Source: an uncultured virus (IMG/VR IMGVR_UViG_3300042864_000556) (Duplodnaviria > Heunggongvirae > Uroviricota > Caudoviricetes). Taken from it: DNA of 64,000 nt. Under the pieces are notes generated by a model, which saw only the letters and a list, made by a program, of their open reading frames with translations, had not been told where the DNA came from and did no database searches. Below, piece by piece: positions 9,328 through 24,360 of the stretch. The position numbers were made by a program, and so were the translations under genes. Each line of letters starts with the position of its first letter. Position 1 is the stretch's first letter. The stretch lies in the IMG/VR virus record IMGVR_UViG_3300042864_000556, one strand, 5' to 3'.

Positions 9328-9614
9328 TGAAACTAAACAAGCGAGATAACGACTTTTTGAACATAGCACGAAAGGCGGGTATAACAAACGAGCAAGCGTT
9401 TGAGTTTATTGAGCAACTAAAAAAGCACACTTATAAAAACCATTCGTTGTTTGTAAGGGGGTTTGGGACTATCGAGGTGGTAAAGCACAAGCCAAGAACA
9501 GCATTGCAATTTACGGGCGAACCAAGAATGATACCATCATTTAAGCGTGTCAAGATAAAGATGAACTTAGATTACCGAAACAAACTCAACAATATAAAGA
9601 AACATAGCACATAA
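9327..9614 (+). CDS. HU/IHF-like DNA-binding protein
   Basis: VRGFGTIEVVKHKPRT...TGEPRMIP; stop codon is the TAA of the first attC-like site. Confidence 0.7.
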   Translation: MKLNKRDNDFLNIARKAGITNEQAFEFIEQLKKHTYKNHSLFVRGFGTIEVVKHKPRTALQFTGEPRMIPSFKRVKIKMNLDYRNKLNNIKKHST

Positions 9615-9679
9615 CGTTTTGCAGCTACACGCTGTGAGCGTTGGAATGAGGGAGGAAAAATAGCGTGTAGGTGATGTTA
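9612..9679 (-). repeat. attC-like site A1
   Basis: TAACGTTTTGCAGCTACACGCT...AGCGTGTAGGTGATGTTA. Confidence 0.75.
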
Positions 9680-9726
9680 TCGGCTGCCCTTCTTTCGGAA
9701 TTATCAAATTAAAAACAATAAACAAA

Positions 9727-9948
9727 ATGAAACAAACCGCAGTAAATTATTTGGTTAATGAGTTAAAAAAATCAAAACATTTTCAAAGATTAATAAATGA
9801 AGTTAGCGAAAACAAAACAATCGTTGAAGACATTATTTTACAAGCAAAAGAATTAGAGCAAGAGCAAATAATGGAGGCACATTATGCACCTAAATACGGG
9901 TGCTTTTCAGAAAAATACTATGATGAAACTTTCGGTGATATTTCTTAG
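9727..9948 (+). CDS. Cassette-borne hypothetical protein (MKQTAV family)
   Basis: Between A1 and A2; similar to 16314..16580. Confidence 0.7.
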   Translation: MKQTAVNYLVNELKKSKHFQRLINEVSENKTIVEDIILQAKELEQEQIMEAHYAPKYGCFSEKYYDETFGDIS

Positions 9949-9957
9949 GGTTGCCGA

Positions 9958-10044
9958 TAACGTTTTGCGGCTTGGCGAAGGCTGCCTAACGGATGCTCAA
10001 TTTTCGAACGAAACTTTATGGCAGCTTTTGCCAAACCGCTGTTA
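9958..10044 (-). repeat. attC-like site A2
   Basis: TAACGTTTTGCGGCTTGGCGAAGGCTGCC...GGCAGCTTTTGCCAAACCGCTGTTA. Confidence 0.85.
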
Positions 10045-10085
10045 CCTGCTGGGCGGTTTATCAGTAGGAACTTAAATAAAAAACG

Positions 10086-10331
10086 ATGATTAAAGTAGCA
10101 AAAAAAGATTTAAAGAACATTGAAGTTGAAGTCAATAAAAACGGTGGCTTTACTGTATGGGTTCTTGAAAAGAAAAAAGTAAATGGCAAGATGATTACTT
10201 TCAAACATTGGATTATTGACGGGAGCTGCATTAAGGATGATGGTGAAATCAAACTGGGTTTACATGATATTTGGAAAATCAATGCAAAGTTTGACGAAGT
10301 AGAAAATGCTCTTTATGTAACGAGGTCGTAG
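10086..10331 (+). CDS. Cassette-borne hypothetical protein
   Basis: Fills the cassette between A2 and A3. Confidence 0.7.
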   Translation: MIKVAKKDLKNIEVEVNKNGGFTVWVLEKKKVNGKMITFKHWIIDGSCIKDDGEIKLGLHDIWKINAKFDEVENALYVTRS

Positions 10332-10340
10332 CCTTGCAGC

Positions 10341-10430
10341 TAACGGTTTTCGTATATACGAGGTACGTCAAACGATAAACTTCAAATTATAAACAAATGC
10401 TTGTATGTGTATCTTGTATATACGCTGTTA
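10341..10430 (-). repeat. attC-like site A3
   Basis: TAACGGTTTTCGTATATACGAGGTAC...GTATCTTGTATATACGCTGTTA. Confidence 0.8.
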
Positions 10431-10449
10431 GCAGATAGTAAAAATTATT

Positions 10450-10611
10450 ATGGAAGATATAAAGTTAAAATACTTAGACCCATTAACTGACAAGCAGAAA
10501 GAAGCAATTTTTGGTGTGAAAATAGAACATTTGACACCAAAGGAAATACTTGAAAAATATGGCGATATATTGACCAAAGAGCAAAAAATTGCGTTAGGCA
10601 TCACGGAATAA
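10450..10611 (+). CDS. Cassette-borne 53-aa hypothetical protein
   Basis: Hand-translated MEDIKLKYLDPLTDKQKE...ALGITE. Confidence 0.6.
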   Translation: MEDIKLKYLDPLTDKQKEAIFGVKIEHLTPKEILEKYGDILTKEQKIALGITE

Positions 10612-10620
10612 TTTTTATTT

Positions 10621-10666
10621 CGGATCGCAGCTATGCGCTCGTTTTAATGGCGCATAGGTGCTGTTA
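10621..10666 (-). repeat. Degenerate attC-like site A4 (TAAC end missing)
   Basis: GCAGCTATGCGC...GCGCATAGGTGCTGTTA retained; left TAAC absent. Confidence 0.65.
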
Positions 10667-10710
10667 GCAGATGGCACGGTTTAATTAGTAAAACTTAATT
10701 AGAAATACAA

Positions 10711-11016
10711 ATGGAAAACTCGAAACAAAGTGAAGCATTCTTTGAAATGTTCACTCAAGTAAGGAAAGAAATTGCAAACGAAAACGGATACCACTTAGCA
10801 ACTGCAATAATGAAAACTTTTGACAGGTGGAATATGTGGCAAACTGGTATGCCTGAATTTGATGGTAAATATCTTGCGTTAATTGAACATGAACAAGAAT
10901 GCAAGAATGTGTGGAAGTATCAAGAAATAGTCGATTGCGTCTTTAATAATTGGGTATTAAAAGACAAACAGAAAGTAGTAGGATGGAAAAAATTGTCAAA
11001 CGAAGACGGTCAGTAG
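10711..11016 (+). CDS. Cassette-borne hypothetical protein
   Basis: WQTGMPEFDGKYL...VVGWK; cassette ends GTTAGCAGATGGCAC / GTGCTTTCTGCTAAC. Confidence 0.7.
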   Translation: MENSKQSEAFFEMFTQVRKEIANENGYHLATAIMKTFDRWNMWQTGMPEFDGKYLALIEHEQECKNVWKYQEIVDCVFNNWVLKDKQKVVGWKKLSNEDGQ

Positions 11017-11026
11017 TGCTTTCTGC

Positions 11027-11097
11027 TAACTGCTACGCTATACGAACCTTGATTTATAATTCATTGAATGACAGTGCAAAAAGTATTGATTATAATT
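11027..11097 (-). other. attI-like terminal site of array A
   Basis: TAAC-TGCTACGCTATACGAAC-N35-GTATTGAT; aligns with 17316-17387 and 19136-19200. Confidence 0.7.
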
Positions 11098-11206
11098 TAA
11101 TAACAATGGAACTAAACCCAAAGACCAAAAAGATATTGTACGTTACATTTCTGACTACATTTCTAATCTACTCAGCTATATTATTTTTAACCTTAATTTA
11201 TAAACT

Positions 11207-11401
11207 ATGTTACAATTAACAATCGAAGAATACCAACAGATATTAGCGCAAAGAACAGCGTTAAAATACTACATACGCAAAGACTTTGACAAGGCTAAAG
11301 ATAGGGATTACTTAGAAGCGATTATCGAATCAGCGATTGAGCTAGGTATGCCACAAGATTTCATTAACGAAATGAAAAACGATTTAAGTGTAAAGCCATG
11401 A
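11207..11401 (+). CDS. Hypothetical protein
   Basis: ORF in operon context. Confidence 0.5.
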   Translation: MLQLTIEEYQQILAQRTALKYYIRKDFDKAKDRDYLEAIIESAIELGMPQDFINEMKNDLSVKP

Positions 11402-11577
11402 TGTACTGCCCTAACTGCGACAGAAACTACTCACAATCAGATTGCGAGGTAGAAGATTACCCAACATCACCGTTGGATGCTGACAAAGAGGTTTCTCATT
11501 TAGAATGCCCCGATTGCGGTGGTGATGTAGAAAGTGAAGTGGATGATAGCGACTATTGGGAAACTGAGTTTTTGTAA
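11398..11577 (+). CDS. Small Zn-finger protein (CPNC...CPDC)
   Basis: Hand-translated 59 aa; ATGA overlap. Confidence 0.55.
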   Translation: MMYCPNCDRNYSQSDCEVEDYPTSPLDADKEVSHLECPDCGGDVESEVDDSDYWETEFL

Positions 11578-11715
11578 ATCAAGGAAATAGTCTTATAATT
11601 GTACCGCAGTTCACTATGAAAGAATTAAAAACATTCCCGAAACATCATTGCCTATCGTGCGTTCTTGCACAAGTGGACTGCCTTTGATGGAGTAGGGTAT
11701 TTTATTTTAAAACAA

Positions 11716-11982
11716 ATGGAAAATGTAAAAGAATTATCTACTGAGTTTATCGGGAGAGGACAAGTTAAAGGGTTTAGGTTTACCCTTAAAAACAAAACTG
11801 AAAAAGGGTACATATACGAAGTCAGTACAGGCTATTCTACACACTTTGAAGTATTCAAGAAACGAATCAACAAACAATTTAATTGCATTAGTTACCCAAG
11901 TGACAAGGCGTTTGGTTTTTGGGCGTGGAGTTGTTCGGATTATGAAGGCGCGTTGTATAGACTGGAGGGCTTTGAGATATGA
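11716..11982 (+). CDS. Hypothetical protein
   Basis: Likely start MENVKEL; YPSDKAFGFWAWS motif. Confidence 0.6.
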   Translation: MENVKELSTEFIGRGQVKGFRFTLKNKTEKGYIYEVSTGYSTHFEVFKKRINKQFNCISYPSDKAFGFWAWSCSDYEGALYRLEGFEI

Positions 11983-12587
11983 GAGAATCGTTTTTAATCT
12001 ACAAGTCTTTTTACGAGCCTATAAAAGACCTTTCAAATGATGATTTAGGGCAATTGTTTAGGGCAATATTTGAATATCAATTATTAGACAAAGAACCCGC
12101 AAACACAAATAGAATATTCATGGCTTTCCAATTTTTCAAAAATCAATTTAGGCTTGATAATGATAAATATGAAAAGGTGGTTAATAAAAACAGAATCAAT
12201 GGTTTATCAGGTGGCAGACCTAAAAGCAAACAAAAGCCAAATAACCCACCGCTTTTTTTAGAACCCAAAAAAGCCGATAATGATAATGGTAATGGTAATG
12301 GTAATGTAAATGATAAAGAATTTAATTTAAATAACGATTTAGAAATGTTTGAAGATTGGTTAGAGACGTTCAACATGATGTTTAATAGAAATCACAGACC
12401 GATAAAGAAAGTAATAGCATCATACAATGCAAGGATAAAAGAAGGGTATGAACAACAAGAGTTGCTTGACGCATTAGAAAATGTCAAAAACAACCCATAT
12501 CACATTGAGACTAAATTCACATACATAACCCCTGAGTTTATGACAAGGGCAGATAAGATAGAAAAATATAAAACACACAACATATGA
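11979..12587 (+). CDS. Replication initiator/replisome organiser (DUF6291-like N-terminus)
   Basis: ESFLIY...LGQLFRAIFEYQ...NGLSGGRP, DNDNGNGN linker, TPEFMTR C-terminus; upstream of helicase. Confidence 0.75.
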   Translation: MRESFLIYKSFYEPIKDLSNDDLGQLFRAIFEYQLLDKEPANTNRIFMAFQFFKNQFRLDNDKYEKVVNKNRINGLSGGRPKSKQKPNNPPLFLEPKKADNDNGNGNGNVNDKEFNLNNDLEMFEDWLETFNMMFNRNHRPIKKVIASYNARIKEGYEQQELLDALENVKNNPYHIETKFTYITPEFMTRADKIEKYKTHNI

Positions 12588-14650
12588 GCATAGTTAGTAT
12601 ATATGAAAATAATAAAGACACCACAAGTCAATACACAATACCCGTTTTAGATGCACTATATCGCATTAGAGACGGCAAAAGTAGAAAAAGGATAGAAGAC
12701 CTAAGACAGATGGATAAAGTGTCTTATAATCAAAATAAAGGACTATTGCCATCAATTACCTTTAGTGGTACGTTTTCTAAGCGAAATGACAAGGATATGC
12801 TAACCCATAGTGGTTTTCTATGTATAGACTTTGATAGTGTTGATAATGTTGAGGTAAAAAAAGAGCAGCTATCCAAAATACCCTACATATACGCAGCGTG
12901 GATTAGCCCAAGCGGTGAGGGGGTAAAAGCATTGGTTAGAGTTCCACCAATTATTGAAAACCATAGAAAGCACTATCAAGCACTTTTGGAAGCGCATCCC
13001 GATATGGATAAAAGCTGTATAAACGAAAGTAGGTTTTGCTATGAAAGTTACGACCCGAACATTTACATAAACGAAAAGTCGGAAATTTATACTAAGACTT
13101 ACGAAAAGCGTGAGGAAAGGTTTGTTAAGAAAGTTGAAATATCGGAGTATTCTACAATATTTGAGAACCTTTTGAAATGGCAATCTAAAAACTCAAGGTA
13201 TTTTGAAAGCGGGAATCGTAACACGTTTGTTTTTGTGCTTGCAGGTGCGTTATGTAGGTACGGAGTCCCAATGTCAGAAGCGCAATACCTAATATCAAAT
13301 CAAATTCATGTAAACAATGACTTTAGTGAATCTGAAATGATTAAAGCTATTCAGCAAGGATATAAAACAAATAGCGGTAGGTATGCAACTGAGAAGTTTG
13401 AAACAGAGGAGATGTATGTTCAAACAATGGAGTTTAAAAGGGATATAGAATACTTTGAAACAGAGTTTGACTATAAGGATATAATTTTTGGCGATTTTGA
13501 CGGAGTTATAGACGTGTATGACAATGGTTATGGTTCGGCAGAAACTACCTACTATACCGAACTTGACAAACACTTTAAATGGAAAAGAGGGGATTGGACT
13601 TTAACTTCGGGCGCGGGTAATCACGGAAAGACCAGTGTTATGTTACAGCTAATGCTTATTAAGTCAATTAACGATGGTGTTAAGTGGGCGTTGTTTGTGC
13701 CTGAAAATATGCCGTCAAAATTATTCTACACAGAATTAACCGAGATGTTGGTTGGTTGTGACATAACCCCATCAAACCCACATCGCCCCAATAAAGACAG
13801 TATAGAACAAATAGCAGATTTTTTATCGGAACATTTTATTGTAGTTCATCCAAAGGAATTAGCACCAACACCACAGTATATAAAATCAAAGTTCTTAGGA
13901 CTAATAATGCACAAAGGGGTGAGTGGTATATTTATAGACCCATTTAATAGGTTAATGAATGATTATACATCCACATCGGGCAGAGACGACAAGTATTTAG
14001 AAGCGTTCTTAGCAGATATGAGTAATTTTGTAAAACACCATGACTTATATTCGTGCATTATAGCACACCCTACAAAACTAAGGAAAGTAGATGGAGAAAA
14101 AGACTATCCTTGTCCTGATGTTTTTAATATTGCGGGAGGTGCAATGTGGAATAATATGATGGATAATATATTGTTTTGGCATAGACCGTATAAGATTTCA
14201 GAGCCTAATAATCCATTATGTATATTCAAGTCTGCGAAGATTAGGTGGAAGAAAATAGTAGGGCATGAAGGAGAGATAGAGTTTATGTATGATTTTAAAC
14301 GTAGGAGATATTATTTAGATAATTTTTGTCCTCTAGATACAAATCCATTTAACTTTGTAGAAGGTGGTGTTATGTTTGAGGATGTTGTAAAAGACACAAC
14401 GGGCAAGCGGATAGAAACCAATCCATATAGGATGACAGATTCCGACCACAAGCAGATGTTAGAACACACATTTTATGATGTAAAACCGTTAAGCATGAAA
14501 GATTTTGCAGCAAGGCTTAAACAATCACTACAAAGGTATGGATACCCAATAAGTAAAAGCGCAGAGTTTAAGCAATATTACATACAAAACAACTATTTAA
14601 CTATTAATAACGGTATGTATTTTATCGAAACACCAAACAACGAAAATTAA
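12584..14650 (+). CDS. Primase-helicase (VirE-N/BT4734-like + PriCT + SF4 helicase)
   Basis: LPSITFSGTF, CIDFD, SPSGEGVK, GNRN; Walker A GAGNHGKT, FIDPFN, IIAHP. Confidence 0.85.
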   Translation: MSIVSIYENNKDTTSQYTIPVLDALYRIRDGKSRKRIEDLRQMDKVSYNQNKGLLPSITFSGTFSKRNDKDMLTHSGFLCIDFDSVDNVEVKKEQLSKIPYIYAAWISPSGEGVKALVRVPPIIENHRKHYQALLEAHPDMDKSCINESRFCYESYDPNIYINEKSEIYTKTYEKREERFVKKVEISEYSTIFENLLKWQSKNSRYFESGNRNTFVFVLAGALCRYGVPMSEAQYLISNQIHVNNDFSESEMIKAIQQGYKTNSGRYATEKFETEEMYVQTMEFKRDIEYFETEFDYKDIIFGDFDGVIDVYDNGYGSAETTYYTELDKHFKWKRGDWTLTSGAGNHGKTSVMLQLMLIKSINDGVKWALFVPENMPSKLFYTELTEMLVGCDITPSNPHRPNKDSIEQIADFLSEHFIVVHPKELAPTPQYIKSKFLGLIMHKGVSGIFIDPFNRLMNDYTSTSGRDDKYLEAFLADMSNFVKHHDLYSCIIAHPTKLRKVDGEKDYPCPDVFNIAGGAMWNNMMDNILFWHRPYKISEPNNPLCIFKSAKIRWKKIVGHEGEIEFMYDFKRRRYYLDNFCPLDTNPFNFVEGGVMFEDVVKDTTGKRIETNPYRMTDSDHKQMLEHTFYDVKPLSMKDFAARLKQSLQRYGYPISKSAEFKQYYIQNNYLTINNGMYFIETPNNEN

Positions 14651-14656
14651 AATAAT

Positions 14657-14878
14657 ATGAAACAAAAAACCAAATCACAGCCATACATAGGCAACATCAA
14701 AATTGGCAATCAATTTAGGATAAAAAGCGACAACAATATCATCGAGGTCGTTGACGTAAACAACAACATTGTCTGTAAATACATTGTCAGCGACACAAAA
14801 AAAGACCTACCCGTTACTTTTGGCGGTGACGACTTGGATAAAAAAGTAAAGTTTGGCTACTTTATTAAAATTAAATAG
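14657..14878 (+). CDS. Hypothetical protein
   Basis: ORF in operon context. Confidence 0.5.
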   Translation: MKQKTKSQPYIGNIKIGNQFRIKSDNNIIEVVDVNNNIVCKYIVSDTKKDLPVTFGGDDLDKKVKFGYFIKIK

Positions 14879-14907
14879 CCTAATTATCAGCAAGTTAAAA
14901 ATAACTC

Positions 14908-14948
14908 TTGCATATAAAATACTAACCACTATATATTTGTACCGTTAA
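14908..14948 (+). promoter_or_regulatory. Bacteroidota-type promoter upstream of the operon containing array B
   Basis: TTGCA...TATATTTGTACCGTTAA. Confidence 0.7.
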
Positions 14949-14959
14949 ACAATTAAAGC

Positions 14960-15187
14960 ATGACTAATTTATTCCAAAGATTGAAGCCCGAAGTGCGGGA
15001 AAAAGTTAAACTCTATTTAGGCGAAGGTTCGTTCCATTGGGTGCGTTTTAAAGAAGTGTTATCATCTAATACTAGCTACCTACCCATACCTTTTCAACTT
15101 ATAAAATGGATAGCAGACGCAACGGGCGAGGGTGATATGTTAGCTATTGAATTAATGTTTACTCAAGATTCACCATTTAATACTTAA
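14960..15187 (+). CDS. Hypothetical protein
   Basis: First ORF after promoter. Confidence 0.55.
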   Translation: MTNLFQRLKPEVREKVKLYLGEGSFHWVRFKEVLSSNTSYLPIPFQLIKWIADATGEGDMLAIELMFTQDSPFNT

Positions 15188-15363
15188 TAACATGAACACA
15201 AACAACTTAAAGCAATGCAGCGACATTCTTCGCTCGGTTTACCCAAAGCCACAAATCAGAAAAACAGTTGACCCCAACGAAGGGTTATCAGCAATGGATA
15301 GGCAGATATTATTTTATACTTCGCTTATGCGCACCAAGTTACTGTTAGCTAAAAACACAAGAC

Positions 15364-15738
15364 ATGACAGTTAGTTTGATACCATATTACTCAGTAGGTA
15401 GGGCGGATATATCCCGAATCAACGAAATAAAAGTTACCGCTACGTTGGATGATATATTAGATGCGGTGTGTTCGCATACGGGTCAAAGCATAGAATTTGT
15501 GGGTAGAAAAACCCGCAAGAGAGAGATTGCCCAAGCAAGGTATTTGTACTTTCATTTTTCGTGGATATACACCAATATCTCGCTAAGTAAAATAGGCGAA
15601 AAGGTAGGCGGATACGACCATACAACTGTCATACATGGGCGTGACCTTATTAACGACTTAGCCTTATATAACAAGTCAATAGCTAACGATGTTCAATTAA
15701 TTCATAACAAACTAAATAAATTTATATTATGCAGGTGA
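15364..15738 (+). CDS. DnaA C-terminal-like HTH protein
   Basis: TRKREIAQAR...SLSKIG...GGYDHTTVIHG. Confidence 0.8.
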   Translation: MTVSLIPYYSVGRADISRINEIKVTATLDDILDAVCSHTGQSIEFVGRKTRKREIAQARYLYFHFSWIYTNISLSKIGEKVGGYDHTTVIHGRDLINDLALYNKSIANDVQLIHNKLNKFILCR

Positions 15739-15920
15739 TACATAACGAAGACACTCGTAATTTAGACGGGGTAGTAGATTTTAGGGCTGTAATAAGCGCA
15801 AGTGGTTCGGCTGTTGAGATAACACACGAACACGGCACGGTTGAAGTTTTGCAGTACCATAACTCTGACGATTGCTTACAAGGTTTTAGAGTGATTAGCG
15901 ATAGGCTAAAAGGTAAATAA
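15729..15920 (+). CDS. Hypothetical protein; stop codon is the TAA of attC B1
   Basis: ORF ends GGTAAATAA-C. Confidence 0.55.
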   Translation: MQVIHNEDTRNLDGVVDFRAVISASGSAVEITHEHGTVEVLQYHNSDDCLQGFRVISDRLKGK

Positions 15921-15995
15921 CGGTTTCGGGCTTGGCGAAGTGGCTTTTGTGCGTTGGCTTGTGTGTCGGAAAGCCATTTTGCCAAACCCGTGTTA
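15918..15995 (-). repeat. attC-like site B1
   Basis: TAACGGTTTCGGGCTTGGCGAAGTGGCTTT...AAAGCCATTTTGCCAAACCCGTGTTA. Confidence 0.85.
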
Positions 15996-16068
15996 TATGA
16001 AGTGCCGACTTATTTACGATAAAGCTCAATTGAAACAATAAACAGAAAAACAAAAAGAAAAAAAAGCG

Positions 16069-16329
16069 ATGGAAAAAACAGCTATACAAACATTAATTGA
16101 AGACCTTAAAAAAGAAGGTTATCAAATGGACAATTTAGATGCTCATTATTATTTAGAATTAGAAAAAGTACAGAAATGGAATAATTTTTTAGAAAACAAC
16201 TTCCCTTTAAATGATTGGGATATTGTTGTTTTTAGCAACAAAAAAAACAAATATTACATTGAATATACGGATAGTGAATTTTACCAAAGATGTATTAATA
16301 GAAACTATATAAAATGGATGAAATTATGA
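16069..16329 (+). CDS. Cassette-borne hypothetical protein
   Basis: Within cassette B. Confidence 0.6.
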   Translation: MEKTAIQTLIEDLKKEGYQMDNLDAHYYLELEKVQKWNNFLENNFPLNDWDIVVFSNKKNKYYIEYTDSEFYQRCINRNYIKWMKL

Positions 16330-16580
16330 AACAACAAACAGCAGTAGAATGGTTAATTGAGCAACTAACTCCTTCAATATCTTTGCAACAAAAACATATT
16401 GATGAATTAAAAGAGAAAGCTAAAGAAATGGAGAAAGGTCAAATAGTCGATGCAGGCGTTTTTTCATTTCAACTAAATGATAAAACGCCTTACGGAATGG
16501 AATATCTAAGCAAACTTGATAATGCAATTTCAAATGCTGTGTATTATTATAATGAAACTTATAACAAACAAAATAAATAA
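16314..16580 (+). CDS. Cassette-borne hypothetical protein (MKQTAV family)
   Basis: TAVEWL...AKEMEK.QI...YYNETY. Confidence 0.65.
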   Translation: MDEIMKQQTAVEWLIEQLTPSISLQQKHIDELKEKAKEMEKGQIVDAGVFSFQLNDKTPYGMEYLSKLDNAISNAVYYYNETYNKQNK

Positions 16581-16851
16581 CATGGAAACAAGTAAAGAAT
16601 TAAAAACACCAACACAACACATGATGATATGGGTGTTGCAAAACTTTGAAAAAGAGTTAGAAAACGATATTGATAAAGACAAGTCGCTTGATGAAATATT
16701 TGACGAAACACTAACTTTTGAGCAACGAAAAATGAAAGAGTTTTTTATAGCTGGAATTATGCTTGGCTCTGGAGCTTATCAGTTAAAGAAAGAGTTTGAT
16801 ATAGATGTAGAATTTAAAAAGTTTTACTCAAAATTATTCCCCGAAGAATAA
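16516..16851 (+). CDS. Cassette-borne hypothetical protein (true start probably METSK, about 16582)
   Basis: Within cassette B. Confidence 0.55.
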   Translation: MIMQFQMLCIIIMKLITNKINNMETSKELKTPTQHMMIWVLQNFEKELENDIDKDKSLDEIFDETLTFEQRKMKEFFIAGIMLGSGAYQLKKEFDIDVEFKKFYSKLFPEE

Positions 16852-16877
16852 AATTACATAAATAAAAAATATCAAAA

Positions 16878-17240
16878 ATGAAAGCAAGCGAATTAAGAAT
16901 TGGAAATTTGGTTTATGTTAGTGATAATGAAACTAATATAATATTTAAACAAATTACTCCAATAAACATACATAATTTAATGCACTTAACAGGATGGGAT
17001 AAATCTCCTATCGATATTGAATTTGAACCCATACCATTAACAGAAGAATGGTTATTAAAATTGGCATTTAAAAAAGATGGAACAAACGCTATTTTTTGGA
17101 CTTTAAACAATGTTGATGTTTGGCAATTAAATGGGGTATATGCGAATGATTTAGATTTACCTATTCAATACATTCATCAATTACAAAACTTATACTTTGC
17201 ATTAACTGGTAAAGAATTAGACTATGAAGAAGAATTTTAA
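16878..17240 (+). CDS. Cassette-borne phage protein
   Basis: ELRIGNLV...PIPLTEEWL...HQLQNLYFALTGKEL pattern. Confidence 0.7.
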   Translation: MKASELRIGNLVYVSDNETNIIFKQITPINIHNLMHLTGWDKSPIDIEFEPIPLTEEWLLKLAFKKDGTNAIFWTLNNVDVWQLNGVYANDLDLPIQYIHQLQNLYFALTGKELDYEEEF

Positions 17241-17315
17241 AAGTGCGGTGGCTTTTTTCTTTTTGTTTTTCCTTCACGGATTTTCAATTGGAAACGGTCA
17301 GCAAGGCATTTCATA

Positions 17316-17387
17316 TAACTAATCGCTATGCGAACATTGAATCGTAAGTCATTGTAACATAGGCGTAAATGTATTGATGTGTAATTT
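17316..17387 (-). other. attI-like terminal site of array B
   Basis: TAAC-TAATCGCTATGCGAAC-N35-GTATTGAT. Confidence 0.7.
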
Positions 17388-17507
17388 GCACTAAAAGTAT
17401 ATAGCATATCATTCATTAACCAAAATTACCTTAATAAGGTATGAAATATCATACACGCTTAGTAATAATAGTTTTGTAATCAGCAACACTATCACTATAT
17501 TTGAATA

Positions 17508-18197
17508 GTGAAATCTTCCATTAAAAAGTACAAATGCCTATGCGGATGCGGTGAATCGTTTATCCGCTATTCGCTGTCGCATAAGTGGGTTAACTTAGAC
17601 CACAAAAAGCATTGGCTACTAAACACTATTGAAGGGCAAAAAGAGGTAAACAGAGTAGCTAAAAAGGCTGCAAAGGATAGAGAAAAAGCCGAAAAGAAAA
17701 AGGACAAAGAAGCTAAAGAAAAAACAATAAAATGGGATAAGCTACTACAAAGAAAGGTTCAAGAGATTGCAAGGTTCATAGACCACCTATTGCCATGCAC
17801 CGCTAAAAACGCCCCCGCAAAGCAGTATCACGGTGGGCATATATTCTCAAGGGGTGGCAATTCAAATATAAAATACAACCTACATAACATCCACATACAA
17901 TCAGCCCAATCTAATCACTTTCAAAAAGACGATTACGAACTAAAAATGGGCGTAGTAAGGGTGTACGGAAAAGATTATTTGGAATACATTGAAAGCCTAA
18001 AGAACACACCAACAACCAAGCACTCAAACATGGAGTACAAAGAACTATACAGCAAGGCGTGTAAGATTTCAAATAGGCTAAAAAGCGAAAATAAAAACTT
18101 AGAACAGCCTCGCACAATAGTACAAAGGCTGTCACTAAGAAATCAGATAAATTTAGAATTAGGTATTTATCAAACCGTTGACTATTCCCCAAGCTAA
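17508..18197 (+). CDS. NinG/Rap-like recombination nuclease
   Basis: RFID..LPC, HGGHIFSRG, KYNLHNIHIQ..N, YG.DY. Confidence 0.75.
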   Translation: MKSSIKKYKCLCGCGESFIRYSLSHKWVNLDHKKHWLLNTIEGQKEVNRVAKKAAKDREKAEKKKDKEAKEKTIKWDKLLQRKVQEIARFIDHLLPCTAKNAPAKQYHGGHIFSRGGNSNIKYNLHNIHIQSAQSNHFQKDDYELKMGVVRVYGKDYLEYIESLKNTPTTKHSNMEYKELYSKACKISNRLKSENKNLEQPRTIVQRLSLRNQINLELGIYQTVDYSPS

Positions 18198-18308
18198 AAA
18201 GGGCAATTCAAGTGCATCTTCACACTTACAATGCTTTCAAATATATAAACAATACGTTTACACCTATGGCTATTAGTAGCCTTATAATACCGTGTAATCT
18301 TGCTTTAG

Positions 18309-18620
18309 TCATAACCGTGTATTTATTAGTGATGTTTTGTCTGAGTAGCTTGCAAGCGATTTAGTTATAATATTCTTCTCGGATTCTGTTTTTATAAAGT
18401 ATTCGCACCACTCATATAACTCATCCCTTGTGTATATTATCTTAAACTTAGGATACCTAATTAAATTTTTCATAGCAACTTTGACGCCCGACTTATAACT
18501 ACCTACCCGAACACATTTAGCTGCTTCGTTTCCCCACATTATCAATATAGGCACGTCAGAGATTTTAGATATTTTTTTTAGGTCTACCTGTCTTTTTTGT
18601 GTATTTCTTTTGATAACCAT
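18309..18620 (-). CDS. Hypothetical protein
   Basis: ORF in minus-strand block. Confidence 0.45.
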   Translation of the reverse strand: MVIKRNTQKRQVDLKKISKISDVPILIMWGNEAAKCVRVGSYKSGVKVAMKNLIRYPKFKIIYTRDELYEWCEYFIKTESEKNIITKSLASYSDKTSLINTRL

Positions 18621-18879
18621 ATCTTCCGTTTGTTAGTTCTGCATTAAGAATTAAATTATTTAACGACACCACATCTTCATCGTCTATCTCTGTCATCGAA
18701 AATAATATACTTGCAATCATTTTATAGTCTTTTGATTTTAACATTTTAAGACAAGTGTAATATTTCCACCCAAACACGGGAGATGTTAACCCGTTCTCGG
18801 TGTCTATTAAAATATACCTTTTGTGGGTTTCGCTCAATTTGTAGAGCATTATGTTTTGGTTATTTCTTATTAATATCAT
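18565..18879 (-). CDS. Hypothetical protein
   Basis: ORF in minus-strand block. Confidence 0.5.
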   Translation of the reverse strand: MILIRNNQNIMLYKLSETHKRYILIDTENGLTSPVFGWKYYTCLKMLKSKDYKMIASILFSMTEIDDEDVVSLNNLILNAELTNGRYGYQKKYTKKTGRPKKNI

Positions 18880-18881
18880 AG

Positions 18882-19163
18882 TTATTCAAGGTTATAACAC
18901 CATCTTAATTGTTCTTGTTCGTACCATTGCAAATCACTTACGTCAACCACTACTTGTTCTGTTCTTACCAATCTTTCTACTTCTGTTTTGGTTAATAGAT
19001 TTTTGCCTATCCACCAACCTTGATTTGACTGAGGGATGTATCTTGGTATGCCGTCTATCCTAAACAACATCTTTTTGCGAAAGGCGAATTTAGAACCCAT
19101 AAAGTGAAAATGATTGCTATAAACTATTACGTTGTAATCAATACTTAACTCTTTGTTATTCAT
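18882..19163 (-). CDS. Hypothetical protein starting inside the attI-like site
   Basis: ATG at 19163 lies between the conserved boxes. Confidence 0.6.
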   Translation of the reverse strand: MNNKELSIDYNVIVYSNHFHFMGSKFAFRKKMLFRIDGIPRYIPQSNQGWWIGKNLLTKTEVERLVRTEQVVVDVSDLQWYEQEQLRWCYNLE

Positions 19164-19200
19164 GTTGTTATTGTTTTGTTGTTCGCATATAAAGAAGTTA
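19136..19200 (+). other. attI-like terminal site of array C
   Basis: ATCAATAC-N36-GTTCGCATATAAAGAA-GTTA. Confidence 0.7.
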
Positions 19201-19455
19201 TAGGAAATTTATGGATTTTAAGTATTTTTCAACACCTTCCTTTATTCCTAAACTTTGGTTATGTATTCCATCACATTCCATTGATTGACAAAAATCCATA
19301 AACATTCCTATAACAGCAGGTTGGGCAAAATTTTTATTTGCTTCCCTCGCCATTATTAAGCAATCTACATAAGCACCTTTCACCCTTCTATTAACATTTG
19401 TGTTAGTTGGGATGCTGTCTGCTTTCAATTTAATTTGTTCAATTAGTTCTTTCAT
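19198..19455 (-). CDS. Cassette C1 hypothetical protein (starts in attC loop)
   Basis: Reads through the hairpin arm (NFAQPAVIG); stop at the GTTA junction. Confidence 0.6.
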   Translation of the reverse strand: MKELIEQIKLKADSIPTNTNVNRRVKGAYVDCLIMAREANKNFAQPAVIGMFMDFCQSMECDGIHNQSLGIKEGVEKYLKSINFL

Positions 19456-19517
19456 TCTATTTATATTTTGTTGTTAATAATCCGCAAATAAAAACTTCGC
19501 CAACCTGCGAAACGTTA
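19311..19517 (+). repeat. attC-like site C1 (long coding loop)
   Basis: TAACAGCAGGTTGGGCAAAATTTTTATTTGC...GCAAATAAAAACTTCGCCAACCTGCGAAACGTTA. Confidence 0.8.
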
Positions 19518-19525
19518 TCGGCAAC

Positions 19526-20260
19526 CTAAAAAGACAGCGTACCTTGTTTGATACTTTCTGAAATTCGTTTGATTGCCTTATCAATATATTCTTTGTCAAT
19601 TTCACACGCTGTTAAGTGTAAATTCATTTTATCTAATCGGTTTGCTTTATCTACTGCTAAAGCTATTGAGCCACTCCCGAAATGGGTGTCTAAAAGTTTT
19701 ATTCCATTAGTTGCAAATCCTTTAATGCAAAAATCATAAACCTCTGTTGGTTTTTGTGTTGGATGAAATCTTATTGTAGGTTTTCCAACGCCTTTTATAT
19801 TTCCTTCATATCCGTATCTATTTCCGTCCCACATATATTTAAAAATTTTAGCATTTTTATCAAATGAAGTCCAAGCCATTTCGCAGTCTGCATAAGTATC
19901 TGAATGGTTCAATTTGTCCCAATTAATAAAACATCTTGTATTATTCAAATGCTCTATAAAATAATTTCCACCCCAAATTATTTGGTTTTTACTTACCCTT
20001 TTTAGTTCTGTAAAATATTCTTTTGAAGGTATTTTTGAATCCCAATCATTTGCCGAATTATTATTAAGCCGTTTGTTTTTAGTTATATTTATTCCATAAG
20101 GCGGGTCGACAATTGCCAAATCGAAATATTTATCAGGGTATTGCTTCATTATTTCCATACAATCAGCGTGGAAAAGAGAAAGGAAAGGCAGCCGATAACA
20201 CGGTATAAAACCAATAGCGGTTTCGGTGGTTTGTGTTGTTTCTGTTGTATCTATATTCAT
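19526..20260 (-). CDS. DNA methyltransferase (N6A/N4C, beta-class), cassette C2
   Basis: DPPY, HPTQKP, FGSGS. Confidence 0.9.
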   Translation of the reverse strand: MNIDTTETTQTTETAIGFIPCYRLPFLSLFHADCMEIMKQYPDKYFDLAIVDPPYGINITKNKRLNNNSANDWDSKIPSKEYFTELKRVSKNQIIWGGNYFIEHLNNTRCFINWDKLNHSDTYADCEMAWTSFDKNAKIFKYMWDGNRYGYEGNIKGVGKPTIRFHPTQKPTEVYDFCIKGFATNGIKLLDTHFGSGSIALAVDKANRLDKMNLHLTACEIDKEYIDKAIKRISESIKQGTLSF

Positions 20261-20319
20261 TCTACTAATTTGATAAGTTATTACTATTTAATCCGCTACT
20301 GGTCTTATACCCAACGTTA
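20196..20319 (+). repeat. attC-like site C2
   Basis: TAACACGGTATAAAACCAATAGCGG...CCGCTACTGGTCTTATACCCAACGTTA. Confidence 0.8.
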
Positions 20320-20322
20320 GCT

Positions 20323-20556
20323 TCAATTGCCTGCCAACGCACAGACAAAATCCCAACGAACATTTGCATCTTCTAATGTTTGGTGATTAGTTGTTTTCTT
20401 GTTTTTTCTTTTAACGGTGTAATAATCATATTTACTTGGTTTAAAATCTTCATTACAAGAACAATCACCAAAACATTGGCATCCTGTAAATCTTGTTATT
20501 CCAGTATGATGATACATCACGTTAAGTTCGTTTTCTTTTATAATCTCTTTTGCCAT
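20323..20556 (-). CDS. Cassette C3 hypothetical protein (CxCxxxCxC)
   Basis: Fills cassette. Confidence 0.65.
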   Translation of the reverse strand: MAKEIIKENELNVMYHHTGITRFTGCQCFGDCSCNEDFKPSKYDYYTVKRKNKKTTNHQTLEDANVRWDFVCALAGN

Positions 20557-20600
20557 ATTTTTGTTTTTAATTCGTTAAGCCCACGCAAGGCAACTAAAGC

Positions 20601-20649
20601 TAACAGCACATTGGCGGCATTAAAACGACCGCCAATCTGCAAAACGTTA
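20601..20649 (+). repeat. attC-like site C3 (shortest intact, 49 bp)
   Basis: TAACAGCACATTGGCGG...CCGCCAATCTGCAAAACGTTA. Confidence 0.8.
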
Positions 20650-20658
20650 TAAGCCATT

Positions 20659-21030
20659 TTAGGACGACACACCGTTGATAGCAAGTAAATTCTCCCAACC
20701 ACACGAAACATCGTAACCTAAATCATCGGCTTGATTAACAGTCAATGCTTTTAATTCAATAGTTTCAGTTGGTTCTTTTGGCATTTCTTTATAATCCCAC
20801 CATTCAGAACCATCATACTCGCCTCTTTCAAGCCACCAATTTTCACCAACCACTAATAAATCTTGTGCAACTTTAGATGAACCATAACCACTATCATAAT
20901 CAACATCAGCGTTTTTCTTGAAATCTTCCCAAGTTGTTTTATGAGTTGAAGTTCCTACCCATTTTACATCTGTTTCTTTTTTGTTATTTCTCTCTAATAA
21001 TTCAAGAGTTTCTTTTAATAAATTGCTCAT
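20659..21030 (-). CDS. Cassette C4 phage protein
   Basis: DYDSGYGS...WWLERGEYDGSEWW motif. Confidence 0.75.
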   Translation of the reverse strand: MSNLLKETLELLERNNKKETDVKWVGTSTHKTTWEDFKKNADVDYDSGYGSSKVAQDLLVVGENWWLERGEYDGSEWWDYKEMPKEPTETIELKALTVNQADDLGYDVSCGWENLLAINGVSS

Positions 21031-21077
21031 TGTTTTTAAATTAAATTGTTAAGCCAAACACGAATAAAAACGGCTTA

Positions 21078-21168
21078 TAACAGTGGTTTGGCAAAATACC
21101 GCCACAAGCCTTTGTTCTATAATTCAACATTTGTGCAAGGCGGTACTTCGCCAAGCCACCAAACGTTA
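21078..21168 (+). repeat. attC-like site C4
   Basis: TAACAGTGGTTTGGCAAAATACCGCC...GGCGGTACTTCGCCAAGCCACCAAACGTTA. Confidence 0.85.
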
Positions 21169-21186
21169 GGTGCAATAGCTACGACA

Positions 21187-21711
21187 CTACTCCGCAATGA
21201 CATTTTCGACATCATTAAGTTTCTGTTGCAAACTATTTACTTGCGATTTTAAGTTTTCAATTTGACGAAGTAAGCCATTATTTACTCTTTCATCATCTTT
21301 GAATTTATGCCAGTTGTTTCCAATTATTTGCACAATAGCATCTTTCCAACGCCATTCAAATTGATAGTTCCTATGGGTGTAGTTTTCAATTACATTTTCC
21401 ACACTTAACATTATTGCTTCATCGGTCAAAGTTTTAGTAAGCTGTTCTTTGTTATCCAAAAACAACTTTTCACGAAGTTTGGCAAATTTATATTGCATCG
21501 GATTTTGGATAAATTCTTCTGTAATATCCTTAATCAATTCACTTTCAATTTTAGATTTTGAATTAAGGTAGTGTTCGTAAATCCAGCTTTCCATTTCATC
21601 ACTAAATTTGCCTTGCAATTCGTCTGTAATTTTAGTAATACTTGCTTTCAATATCTTACTTGAAGCATCGTTTATTTGTTCTTCGGTAAATACTTTGTTT
21701 AAACTTTCCAT
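21187..21711 (-). CDS. Cassette C5 coiled-coil hypothetical protein
   Basis: Fills cassette. Confidence 0.7.
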   Translation of the reverse strand: MESLNKVFTEEQINDASSKILKASITKITDELQGKFSDEMESWIYEHYLNSKSKIESELIKDITEEFIQNPMQYKFAKLREKLFLDNKEQLTKTLTDEAIMLSVENVIENYTHRNYQFEWRWKDAIVQIIGNNWHKFKDDERVNNGLLRQIENLKSQVNSLQQKLNDVENVIAE

Positions 21712-21768
21712 TTGTTTTTTATTTATTTTGTTAAAATTAAAATTCTACTAATCAACCGCTACTGCACC

Positions 21769-21855
21769 TAACACGGGTTTGGCAAAAGTGGGCAGAAACA
21801 TTCTGCTAAATTTGAGCATCCTACAAGCCCACCTTCGCCAAGCCCGAAAACGTTA
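21769..21855 (+). repeat. attC-like site C5
   Basis: TAACACGGGTTTGGCAAAAGTGGGC...GCCCACCTTCGCCAAGCCCGAAAACGTTA. Confidence 0.85.
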
Positions 21856-21864
21856 CCACCAATG

Positions 21865-22272
21865 CTATAAGACACGGTAGTAATTCTTTTCAAATATTCT
21901 GACAACCATATCACGTTCCCATTTTGACAACTTTGACTGCTTGTTTTGAATAAGTCCGTATTCTTTGACAATATCAGTTCCATCAGGCAATTTGCGTTCA
22001 TATCGGCTTTCTCCATACCCATACAAATCATTCATATAAGGCATATAAATCATTGAAGCCATTGCCATAATTCCACCAAGTTTTGATGAAACGTGTTTAT
22101 GTTTTCTTTGCTCTGTTTTTATAGGTGCATATTTTACACCATTCAAATCAAAACTTTCATCAGGTTCGATATTGTCAATTACAACAACATCAATTCCTTT
22201 ATTTTTCAACTCTTGAACAACATCATTTTTTCCGTGTCCAACGTGTCCAATTATTCCTATTTTATTTTCCAT
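21865..22272 (-). CDS. Cassette C6 hypothetical protein
   Basis: N-terminus KIGIIGHVGHGK; fills cassette. Confidence 0.7.
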   Translation of the reverse strand: MENKIGIIGHVGHGKNDVVQELKNKGIDVVVIDNIEPDESFDLNGVKYAPIKTEQRKHKHVSSKLGGIMAMASMIYMPYMNDLYGYGESRYERKLPDGTDIVKEYGLIQNKQSKLSKWERDMVVRIFEKNYYRVL

Positions 22273-22310
22273 TTGTTTGTTAAATTAAAATTCGTTAAAA
22301 GCACTGGTGG

Positions 22311-22388
22311 TAACAGCACATAAGCAAAAGCCCAAATCCCTCGCTAAAGCCAACGCTATTTGTGCCTTCGCTTATCTGCAAAACGTTA
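22311..22388 (+). repeat. attC-like site C6
   Basis: TAACAGCACATAAGCAAAAG...CTTCGCTTATCTGCAAAACGTTA. Confidence 0.8.
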
Positions 22389-22396
22389 TAGGGCAT

Positions 22397-22708
22397 TTAG
22401 CCATCAACACCTTCATAACCGTTTGGAAGTATTACAGAGCCATTTCTTTTGCGAAATGTTTGTTTGCGTTCTCCAGCTTTGTAGGCATTAAATAAATCAG
22501 TTTCATCATACATTTTAGTAATATCAATTAATGATTCAACTTCATTGATTCTAAAATGTTCTTTAACGACCTGTTCGGGTTTTATCAATTCTCTATTAAT
22601 TTTATCAGCTATTGCTTCGTACATTTCAGGTGCTACTGACACTCCACCACGTTTGTAGTCTCTTTGTTCAAACTCTTTTAAAATTGCTATTACTTTCTTT
22701 TTTGACAT
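22397..22708 (-). CDS. Cassette C7 hypothetical protein
   Basis: Fills cassette. Confidence 0.7.
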   Translation of the reverse strand: MSKKKVIAILKEFEQRDYKRGGVSVAPEMYEAIADKINRELIKPEQVVKEHFRINEVESLIDITKMYDETDLFNAYKAGERKQTFRKRNGSVILPNGYEGVDG

Positions 22709-22731
22709 TGTGGGTAAAAATAAACGCCCTA

Positions 22732-22819
22732 TAACATTGCATACACAAAAGCGGGGGCGAAGTGCTAAAATGTATGTTCGGGTTAAAGAAGCCCCGCCTT
22801 CGTGTATGCTTTGCCGTTA
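22732..22819 (+). repeat. attC-like site C7
   Basis: TAACATTGCATACACAAAAGCGGGG...CCCCGCCTTCGTGTATGCTTTGCCGTTA. Confidence 0.8.
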
Positions 22820-22828
22820 GCGGTAATG

Positions 22829-23140
22829 CTAATCCCATCCACGACAACCATCGTAATGAGAATTTACAAGCCACAGTTCATCATTATTGTTTTTAGGGAA
22901 AATAACCCTATCTTTTTGAGTAAAAGCAGTTTCGTTTTTTGAAATTTTTGAGCAATGACAGCAATGATAACCTTCGTTTCGTTTGTCAATTACTTTTCTT
23001 TTTGATAACTCCAAAGTGAAATTTTCCCTATATTTCTCAACTAATACGTCTTTAAAATATAGTTCTTTTGCTAAGACCGACAAAGCACTACCGCTAACAT
23101 CGGTTTGGCAAGATTGGGGGTTCTGTGGTAAATTGTTCAT
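22829..23140 (-). CDS. Cassette C8 hypothetical protein (starts in attC loop)
   Basis: Leader NPQSCQTDVSGSA encoded by hairpin arm. Confidence 0.65.
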   Translation of the reverse strand: MNNLPQNPQSCQTDVSGSALSVLAKELYFKDVLVEKYRENFTLELSKRKVIDKRNEGYHCCHCSKISKNETAFTQKDRVIFPKNNNDELWLVNSHYDGCRGWD

Positions 23141-23221
23141 TTGTGTTTCTATTTAAAATTTTTAGTAAAATTGAGCGATTGTGCTTTTAAGTCCCCAACC
23201 TCGCCAAGCCGAGAACCGTTA
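23095..23221 (+). repeat. attC-like site C8
   Basis: TAACATCGGTTTGGCAAGATTGGGG...CCCCAACCTCGCCAAGCCGAGAACCGTTA. Confidence 0.85.
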
Positions 23222-23242
23222 GGTGCAATGCCAGCAGACGTG

Positions 23243-23962
23243 CTAAAATAAGCTGACCGATACACCATTAAGCAAGTTTTTACCTGTTTTACAATATTCG
23301 GGTTCGACTTCAAAACAAATGAAATCCCGCCCTATTTCTTTACAAGCTCTTGCAGTTGAAAAGCTACCAGCAAAAGTGTCCAAAACTAAATCGCCTTTAT
23401 TGGTGCTTTTTTCTATCAAGTGCCTTAAAAGGTTTGTTGGCTTTTCTGTTGGGTGGTTATCGGTTGTCATCTTTGCACATTTAATAACATTGCTACTTCG
23501 CCCACCATTTAATTTTTTGCTTCCATTGCTACAAAATATTATCAGTTCATATTTCGGGGCGTAATCACCAAGCAAATCACCGCTACCGTGATTATTCTTT
23601 TCCCAAACTAAAATATTTTTCACATTAAAATACGCCCCTAATGTTTGCTTAAAAACATCAATGTTATGCCAGCTACAAAAAATATAAAGGTGTGCATCAT
23701 CTTTACAAACCCTTTTAAGTTCTTTGCACCAATCGTCTAACCAATCTAAATCAGTATCGTTTTGGATGCTTTTATGCTTTTCTTTTCGTCTATTGCTTCT
23801 ATAAGCCATTCCATAGGGCGGGTCAGTCAAAACAAGGTCAATAGTATTGGTAAAAACTTGCTTAATTGCATCTTCCCAATCAACACAAGCAACCTCGTTC
23901 ACGAAAGGCACTGCACCTAACACGGGTTTGGCAAAATTGCCGTTTTGTTCTTCTATCAACAT
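23243..23962 (-). CDS. DNA methyltransferase (N6A/N4C, beta-class), cassette C9
   Basis: TDPPY, HPTEKP, DTFAGS. Confidence 0.9.
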   Translation of the reverse strand: MLIEEQNGNFAKPVLGAVPFVNEVACVDWEDAIKQVFTNTIDLVLTDPPYGMAYRSNRRKEKHKSIQNDTDLDWLDDWCKELKRVCKDDAHLYIFCSWHNIDVFKQTLGAYFNVKNILVWEKNNHGSGDLLGDYAPKYELIIFCSNGSKKLNGGRSSNVIKCAKMTTDNHPTEKPTNLLRHLIEKSTNKGDLVLDTFAGSFSTARACKEIGRDFICFEVEPEYCKTGKNLLNGVSVSLF

Positions 23963-24037
23963 TCGTTCTTAATTTTAAACATTTGTACTTCTATTTAGCT
24001 TTTGTGTTCGGCAACTTCGCCAAGCCCGAAAACGTTA
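23918..24037 (+). repeat. attC-like site C9
   Basis: TAACACGGGTTTGGCAAAATTGCCG...CGGCAACTTCGCCAAGCCCGAAAACGTTA. Confidence 0.85.
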
Positions 24038-24283
24038 CCTGCCATTTCGGACACGGTACTCGACACCATTAAACAACGACTTCATTACTCGCCTTGCAGT
24101 TTCAATATCCTGAATATCTTTATCAGGGTCAATAGTTCCCATACTATCCTGAACGCATTGAAGCATATAATCAATTTCGCTGTTTAATTCCTGCTCTATT
24201 TGCTCCAAAGTAAGAGAAACGGCAGGTAACACACGTTTGGCGTCATTTGGGCTAACGCCTTGCCCTTGAACATTAGTTTCCAT
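24035..24283 (-). CDS. Cassette C10 hypothetical protein (starts in attC loop)
   Basis: Leader NDAKRVLPAV; stop at GTTA junction. Confidence 0.65.
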   Translation of the reverse strand: METNVQGQGVSPNDAKRVLPAVSLTLEQIEQELNSEIDYMLQCVQDSMGTIDPDKDIQDIETARRVMKSLFNGVEYRVRNGR

Positions 24284-24352: not shown

Positions 24353-24360
24353 TAGGGCAT

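Follow-up and report, generated by a model that had tools for sequence, protein, structure and literature searches.

Does a phage genome that carries arrays of small genes also carry a site at which such genes could be added? The question is raised by a stretch of 64,000 nucleotides (nt) from the uncultured virus IMGVR_UViG_3300042864_000556 (Caudoviricetes), here called the window in its whole length, in which imperfect hairpins with TAAC...GTTA ends stand between the small genes of three arrays (A, B and C, Table 1). Read in gene direction, each array begins with a full hairpin and finishes with TAAC followed by a site that does not fold. An original prediction had taken these closing sites (sites A, B and C) for one attI-like element, repeated at three unrelated loci and acting as the primary insertion site of cassettes. 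Our analysis makes it likely that A, B and C are copies of a duplex acceptor (attI-like) site, part of an integron-like cassette system that would be shared by Bacteroidota phages and chromosomes.

Sites that close three cassette arrays

The hairpins of the arrays have a common anatomy, in which the pairing of TAAC with GTTA gives way to a 4-nt bulge and then to a long stem, and the cassettes between them have inverted flanks of 11-15 nt. Hairpin detection by anchored alignment and minimum free energy proved too noisy, and cassettes were therefore delimited by a flank rule that compares the 11 nt after a GTTA with the inverted 11 nt before the next TAAC (threshold 9/11). The window contains 20 such flank pairs, 16 of them inside the arrays, whereas 100 block shuffles gave 1.34 +/- 1.26 pairs (maximum 5); cassette 10041->10344 of array A falls under the threshold. 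Two marks of integrons are hence present, namely complementary ends across the cassettes and imperfect-hairpin cassette sites with an AAC/GTT core and unpaired bases. A third, genes that read away from attI, is absent: the genes of arrays A, B and C all read towards the site. One further GTTA-flank/flank-TAAC pair (15139-15687, 10/11) lies without hairpins within the ORFs (open reading frames) of a 'core' block; it may be a chance match, with about 1.3 pairs expected per window, or a fossil cassette.

Sites A, B and C are true cassette boundaries, in agreement with their predicted position at the array ends. The left flank of A, GTGCTTTCTGCTAAC, repeats GTTAGCAGATGGCAC at 10663 in inverted form (9/11), that of B, GGCATTTCATATAAC, pairs with GTTATATGAAGTGCC at 15992 across four ORFs (10/11), and that of C, AAATTTCCTATAAC, pairs with GTTATAGGAATGTT at 19314 (8/11). 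The three strings were recovered exactly, with the spacing and on the strands expected. In gene direction each site reads TAAC, 7-8 nt, a proximal box TATRCGAAC, 35-36 nt and a distal box GTATTGAT. Taken in the opposite orientation, the composite ATCAATAC-N25-45-GTTCGYATA occurs three times in the window and in none of 100 dinucleotide shuffles; ATCAATAC by itself is found 7 times (2.84 expected) and TATRCGAAC exactly 5 times. The sites were also rightly described as non-hairpin: neither strand of A, B or C folds (z-scores +0.1 to +1.1), in contrast to three array hairpins (z -1.3 to -3.1), and no fold that a promoter or terminator reading might invoke was seen at any of the three.

The proximal box provides the link to the hairpins. 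The pattern TAAC-N4-10-TWKRCGMA has 10 matches in the window, all in gene sense, where 1.73 are expected and none of 100 shuffles reaches 10. Because these matches are seven hairpin left arms plus A, B and C, the proximal box (TATRCGAA) and the recognition box of the hairpin left arms are one and the same, and the site consists of TAAC and the hairpin-arm recognition box without its complementary arm. In integrons, attI relates to attC as the site relates to the hairpin here. The distance of the box is fixed relative to TAAC and not relative to the next start codon.

The strand that the original prediction had chosen as the top strand fits the gene content of the cassettes. Several genes start in a hairpin loop and end at the TAA of the next TAAC (minus-strand starts at 25826, 25564, 24283, 23962, 23140 and 19455); a crossover TAA|C leaves them whole, whereas G|TTA would split them. 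Because they start in the loop and read through the right arm, loop-started cassette genes share arm-encoded N-terminal peptides such as ..AKPVLGAV.. and ..AKRVLPAV...

Table 1. Positions of sites A, B and C, of their parts and of the arrays that they close
Feature	Position	Strand	Description
Site A, orientation of the original prediction	11090->11027	-	ATCAATAC, 35 nt, GTTCGTATAGCGTAGCA-GTTA
Site B, orientation of the original prediction	17378->17316	-	same box order, spacer 35 nt
Site C, orientation of the original prediction	19137-19200	+	same box order, spacer 36 nt
Site A core	11027..11047	+	TAAC 11027-11030, 8-nt spacer, proximal box TATACGAAC 11039-11047; closes array A
Site A stub and ORF	11064..11219	+	TTG-started frame, then 37-aa ORF from ATG 11107
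Site B	17316..17378	+	TAAC 17316-17319, 7-nt spacer, TATGCGAAC 17327-17335; closes array B
Site B distal part	17371-17378 (distal box)	+	decayed stub TTG-TAA ... K-C-I-D-V-stop
Site C	19137..19200	-	TAAC 19200-19197, 7-nt spacer, TATGCGAAC 19189-19181; closes array C
Site C remainder		-	17-nt leader, ATG 19163, distal box 19144-19137
Small ORF following site C	18882..19163	-	93 aa
Array A	9612..11030	+	hairpins 9612-9679, 9958-10044, 10341-10430, 10627-10666; four small genes
Array B	15918..17319	+	hairpin 15918-15995, one cassette 15992-17319 with four ORFs
Array C	19197..25888	-	14 cassettes, two of them DNA methyltransferase genes (19526-20260, 23243-23962)

Related ends and tyrosine recombinases in other loci

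Ends of the same kind are found in other phages. Among the 123 viral loci listed, to which the counts below refer, applying the flank rule yielded 164 unique cassette ends that had sufficient DNA downstream. Hairpin-type ends account for 92 of them, with G after TAAC in 89; the other 72 are non-hairpin ends, 43 of which do not start with G. The 29 G-starting ends were left out of the class because they are probably undetected hairpins, leaving 43, and T or A follows TAAC in 41 of these. The motif TA..CG[AC]A at offset 5-9 is present in 10/43 ends (23%) versus 29/4430 control TAAC sites (0.65%), and CG[AC]A at offset 9-13 in 16/43 versus 2.7% of controls. This half-site class occurs twice per locus in several loci (L139, L091 and L093) and precedes unrelated genes, among them a recombinase, a ribbon-helix-helix (RHH)-like phrog_25647 protein and a 5'-3' exonuclease. 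The 3' end of the second methyltransferase gene of array C also adjoins a half-site in another phage locus (L083).

Junctions were compared by ungapped counts, since gapped identity gave an inflated background of 70-80%. Downstream of TAAC, L095 and L111 are identical at 15/17, 43/43 and 47/50 positions and upstream at 5/11, 18/39 and 24/50; for L076 and L092 the figures are 16/17, 40/43 and 46/50 downstream and 7/11, 7/39 and 7/50 upstream. L101 and L124, as well as both copies in L091, have 16/17 identical positions downstream of TAAC. In the compared pairs, the similarity starts exactly at TAAC. Site B and L139 have instead the cassette tail in common (11/11, 37/39, 35/50) and a diverged site (11/17, 11/43). 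The cassette ends of array B at 15972-16078 and 17234-17329 are 90.7% and 96.9% identical to L139, an otherwise unrelated phage contig, and enclose unlike cargo, four ORFs in the window and about 630 nt in L139.

A candidate enzyme adjoins several of these sites. The ORFs that begin 40-67 nt after three of them encode tyrosine recombinases with PF00589 and PF13495, and tblastn detected homologues in seven of the loci (L084, L090, L126, L138, L129, L108 and L121, the last truncated to 147 aa). All seven genes have a cassette-type flank and TAAC 38-67 nt upstream of their start, and four of these TAACs had independently been called cassette ends. The recombinases are Xer-like and 265-294 aa long. 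Four of them (L084, L090, L129 and L126) match the TIGR02249 model with 133-168 bits (cut-off 265), the match being split into two parts that leave out the insertion; they score best with the XerA-like model NF040815, at 180-200 bits, which is still below its cut-off of 220. Given the low, split score and the XerA-like best match, the phage-locus recombinases are not IntI. Related solved structures include XerC-like, XerA and IntI4 proteins, and an IntI-type integrase with its inserted extra domain was found neither in the window nor among the site-linked recombinases.

The family extends to genome contigs labelled Flavobacteriia, Sphingobacteriia, Bacteroidales, Candidate Phyla Radiation (CPR) and DPANN (Diapherotrites, Parvarchaeota, Aenigmarchaeota, Nanoarchaeota and Nanohaloarchaeota). 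The start of each recombinase ORF was set at the first ATG in frame behind the preceding stop codon; counted from there, the 150 nt upstream contain TATRCGMA in 17/73 bacterial and archaeal loci versus 53/2776 control windows. Two chromosomal loci (L212 and L234) have the order recombinase, site-GTTA, cassettes, with co-directional genes that read away from the site. The strand choice of the original prediction matches this order and therefore corresponds to the natural polarity of the site, only the cargo genes being reversed in the phage. In phage loci the recombinase gene follows the array and, by the same polarity, is directed away from it.

Five Flavobacteriia loci (L201, L195, L225, L212 and L218) contain, about 50-80 nt upstream of extended recombinase ORFs, imperfect palindromes TTATRCGAA-N5-TTCGNWTAA followed by ATACG, which may represent recombinase binding sites or operators. 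One of them, L201, has a 12-mer identical to site B, TATGCGAACATT, and TATGCGAA upstream of its recombinase homologue. A contig labelled Candidatus Uhrbacteria (L264) has a recombinase homologue preceded, at a distance of about 100 nt, by a cassette end (3882-3896) whose sequence GGCATTTCATATAAC is identical to the left flanks of site B and L139.

Could the sites be truncated hairpins, that is attC-like left arms whose right arm was deleted, with no acceptor role and a likeness that stems from a duplicated junction? Such an origin would account for the TWKRCGAA box that they share with hairpin left arms and for the homology of A and B on both sides of TAAC, and hairpin 10627-10666 of array A, whose left TAAC is missing, shows that partial hairpins do occur in the window. 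We nevertheless regard it as unlikely: the non-hairpin ends form a class of their own, with T or A after TAAC where hairpins have G and with their own TA..CG consensus, and they recur in unrelated loci before different genes, including all seven recombinase genes found.

The distal box and the weighing of an acceptor role

The distal box has another character than the proximal one. In site C, the ATG of the small ORF sits 17 nt past the proximal box and GTATTGAT forms codons 7-9, Ser-Ile-Asp. Site A can be read in the same register (TTG-AAT-GAC...AGT-ATT-GAT-TAT-AAT-TTA-ATA, N-D-S-A-K-S-I-D-Y-N-L-I-T), its distal box at 11083-11090 forming the codons S-I-D; from this box on, A and C are identical at 18/21 nt, and of the three differences two are synonymous changes at third positions. 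Site B has a decayed version, TTG-TAA...TGT-ATT-GAT-GTG-TAA. Because the distal box corresponds to codons 7-9 of the gene after site C, the constant spacing between the boxes is that of a 16-17-nt leader and six codons; A and B are paralogous, decaying copies of a C-like module comprising site, leader and first codons. The ATCAA motif of the distal box had been likened to a binding site of integration host factor (IHF), a proposal that is not supported: the box is coding in C, and by eye the IHF consensus WATCAANNNNTTR is missed at the last position in A, at the first and last in B and at the last two in C.

The distal block may still have a role at the DNA level, because B and L139 keep 15/17 identical positions in it although it is noncoding there, and because GTATTGAT resembles the cassette-flank consensus AGTATTG(C)...TAAC. 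With at most one mismatch, GTATTGAT is found within 90 nt of 4/43 half-sites versus 8% of control segments and is not a general feature of the class; the looser [AGT]G[TC]ATT[GA] at +20..70 occurs at 7/43 sites versus 6.3% of controls and 1/92 hairpin ends, a weak hint. Relatives of the small ORF also follow such sites in L141, L081, L083, L074 and L096, the BLASTP match to L141 being weak (E 1e-4 over 18 residues only). No Pfam or PHROG match was obtained for this ORF, and Atlas gives viral hypothetical proteins only.

These features invite a regulatory or translational reading, in which a promoter, operator or leader with the start of a small gene was triplicated and merely abuts the arrays. 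A leader and first codons do explain the distal box and the spacing, and the conservation of the distal block between B and L139, where it is noncoding, can also be counted in its favour. We find it improbable all the same: the proximal box keeps its distance to TAAC and not to a start codon, the distal box of A lies 16 nt upstream of ATG 11107 and that of B at least 63 nt from the next start, while in C an ATG (19163) falls between the two boxes, and half-sites of the same class precede unrelated genes. No host-type promoter is evident by eye (no promoter scan was run). As far as the available parts of the phi14:2 preprint go, early promoters of that phage have no common motif and the middle-promoter sequence is not given.

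Phage DNA of the window is present in 24 freshwater or lake-water runs. Lake contigs from four runs (X21-X24) are joined at the borders of hairpins: 22398->25483, where the shorter side measures 90 nt, and, in two runs, 20649->24218. Such joints may reflect variants in the order of the cassettes or other phages with the same arms. A loose end lies at the cargo boundary 16078, the same boundary as in the comparison of B with L139.

Sites B and C are inverted, 1.8 kb apart and placed at a junction of convergent transcription, so that they might be imagined as the loop arms, or the ends of an invertible segment, of one giant element (17316-19200, with NinG and three small ORFs), A being an orphan. 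We give this very little credence. Pairing would be limited to 9 + 8 nt across a 35 x 36-nt mismatch, A has no partner, and the polarity of the hairpins (long arm first, in gene direction) flips between the arrays as it would for two facing arrays; among 15 of 19 joints listed, none joins opposite strands there.

Three copies at array ends do not amount to three witnesses. The boxes and their spacing are conserved as predicted, but the loci are not independent, since A and B can be aligned over about 100 nt to each side of TAAC and A and C have a common reading frame downstream of the distal box. ORF 10711-11016 and ORF 16878-17240 are unrelated (E 1.5). Several other observations weigh against an acceptor role: (i) the homology of A and B on both sides of TAAC indicates duplicated junctions rather than independent insertions; (ii) the at least 123 viral loci were picked by a scan for one hairpin-arm family, and the flank rule that delimits their cassettes is a heuristic; (iii) strict TA..CG[AC]A fails in 33/43 non-hairpin ends, many of them near-matches, and TATRCGMA is absent upstream of the recombinase in 56/73 genome loci; (iv) the exact two-box motif has 58 matches in viral contigs that look like chance, none of which runs into GCG...GTTA or lies near cassettes, and the four matches to TATRCGAAC in the listed hairpin-bearing loci do not adjoin TAAC; (v) L139, the nearest homologue of site B, carries TATATCTAA instead of the proximal box; (vi) tblastn detected no recombinase homologue in the 64 kb of the window (best E 0.52), outside which lies some 8.2 kb of the contig; and (vii) contigs spanning A (10637-11236) and C (18977-19394) show no difference from the window, and no joint falls at A, B or C among 15 of 19 joints listed, in the parts covered. 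The motif search that the original prediction called for had a mixed outcome accordingly: the exact two-box motif is absent from array ends elsewhere, while the half-site class does end arrays and precede recombinases. As for an attI-like role of the sites, the class of boundaries, the link to a recombinase and the breaks at TAAC speak in favour, and the part of the distal box as an IHF site is not supported.

Taken together, we still favour the acceptor-site interpretation and propose the following scheme. A cassette would consist of a hairpin (TAAC, bulged long arm, loop, short arm, GTTA) and one or more genes with inverted flanks, and the acceptor of TAAC, a 7-8-nt spacer and TATRCGAA without complementary arm. 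A Xer-like tyrosine recombinase devoid of the IntI-specific insertion would exchange strands within the common TAAC/GTTA, and a circular cassette would enter the array between its last member and the site. We infer the chemistry, the folding strand and the preference for insertion at the site. Since no recombinase is encoded in the 64 kb, any activity would require an enzyme provided in trans by a co-infecting phage or by the host; otherwise the sites would be fossils. It is tempting, if doubtful, to go further and speculate that a recombinase-less phage keeps several live acceptor sites, loaded with cassettes by the Xer-like enzyme of a Flavobacteriia-type host or co-infecting phage from a single pool shared by phage and host, with the cargo antisense to site polarity; the distal GTATTGAT block might then be an accessory recombinase-binding site, and the inverted B and C might make 17320-19196 invertible.

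Relation to known systems and phage context

The integron attI1 comprises core L and R boxes and accessory direct repeats. The sites described here resemble attI in that a non-palindromic duplex site stands at one end of the array and shares a GTT/AAC core and one recognition box with the folded sites; moreover, related elements have the site beside a recombinase gene that points away from the array, as intI does. They differ in that the recombinases are Xer-like and lack the IntI insertion, that the phage cassette genes face the site and that there are three copies per genome with no recombinase in 64 kb. The hairpins depart from attC too, since in the phage the bulged bases belong to the TAAC-adjacent arm, as read on the gene-sense strand. 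The canonical attC bulge rule, applied here, gives a top strand opposite to that of the half-site geometry. The system lies outside the integron family as defined by IntI.

Two other kinds of array call for comparison. Clusters of attC sites lacking integron integrases (CALINs) are clusters of canonical attC sites served by IntI, with the integrase absent; like them, the phage arrays are bounded by hairpins and have no integrase nearby. To our knowledge CALINs are by definition without attI, whereas each phage array here keeps an acceptor-type site. In T4-type phages, small accessory genes of hypervariable regions are likewise split by conserved stem-loops, the promoter-early stem-loops (PeSLs), and gene shuffling is thought to proceed by homologous recombination; we know of no TAAC/GTTA junction logic, acceptor site or dedicated recombinase associated with PeSLs.

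The closest chromosomal parallel may be sought in rAID-1, described from gut Bacteroidales as small-gene arrays with a XerD-family recombinase and repeats 'reminiscent of integrons' (Ross et al., bioRxiv 10.1101/471110). According to the passages of that preprint on which we rely, the cargo consists of immunity genes, the location is chromosomal or on mobile elements, and a locus is recognised by a XerD-like recombinase at the 5' side followed by at least two co-directional low-GC genes (10.1101/471110). L212 and L234 agree with the order given in these passages, recombinase then co-directional genes. The arrays described here differ in being carried by a phage, and the same passages define no acceptor site or crossover; measured against their definition, the window has no recombinase and the recombinase of the phage loci follows the array. 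Judged from titles and abstracts, no description of integron-like cassette arrays or acceptor sites in phages was found in the literature.

The swapping of small accessory genes in phage hypervariable regions is largely unexplained. It would gain here a defined grammar, consisting of hairpin, TAAC crossover and acceptor site, as well as a candidate enzyme family. Bacteroidota chromosomes have arrays that follow the same grammar, as do single loci with CPR and DPANN labels. This points to a possible integron-style gene capture that does without the IntI-specific domain and is carried by virulent phages; standard integron finders keyed to IntI would probably miss such arrays. A 642-kb uncultured megaphage record (LR756502.1) contains a stretch with 88.5% identity to the hairpin element at 9957-10086, and the hairpin family therefore spans very different phages.

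The window belongs to a crAss-like phage. ORF 51-1967 matches the Crassvirus muzzle protein, and RepL, endolysin, Erf, primase/helicase and NinG genes are also present; the 2970-aa ORF 44466-53378, which has no family match, is perhaps a virion RNA polymerase. The sole 100% match of the window is its own 72-kb metagenome record, and a search with the primase/helicase disclosed no close relatives, the best identities being 37% in viral contigs and 39% in metagenome contigs beyond that record.

Other repeats and genes of the window were noted as well. Two 65-nt copies (7811-7875 and 14892-14956, 75% identical), each comprising an A-rich block, TTG, about 21 nt and TATATTTG, lie directly upstream of the genes at 7881 and 14960 and resemble promoters of the Bacteroidota type, perhaps the tripartite middle promoter described for phi14:2. 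At 27087-31451 (-), a repeated TTAATCAATAAAACAATG-like leader stands directly upstream of many small genes with no hairpins between them. Further ORFs encode a T5orf172/MUG113-domain protein (40488-41300), a dual-specificity phosphatase domain (36756-37274) and a RepL-like protein (34162-34683).

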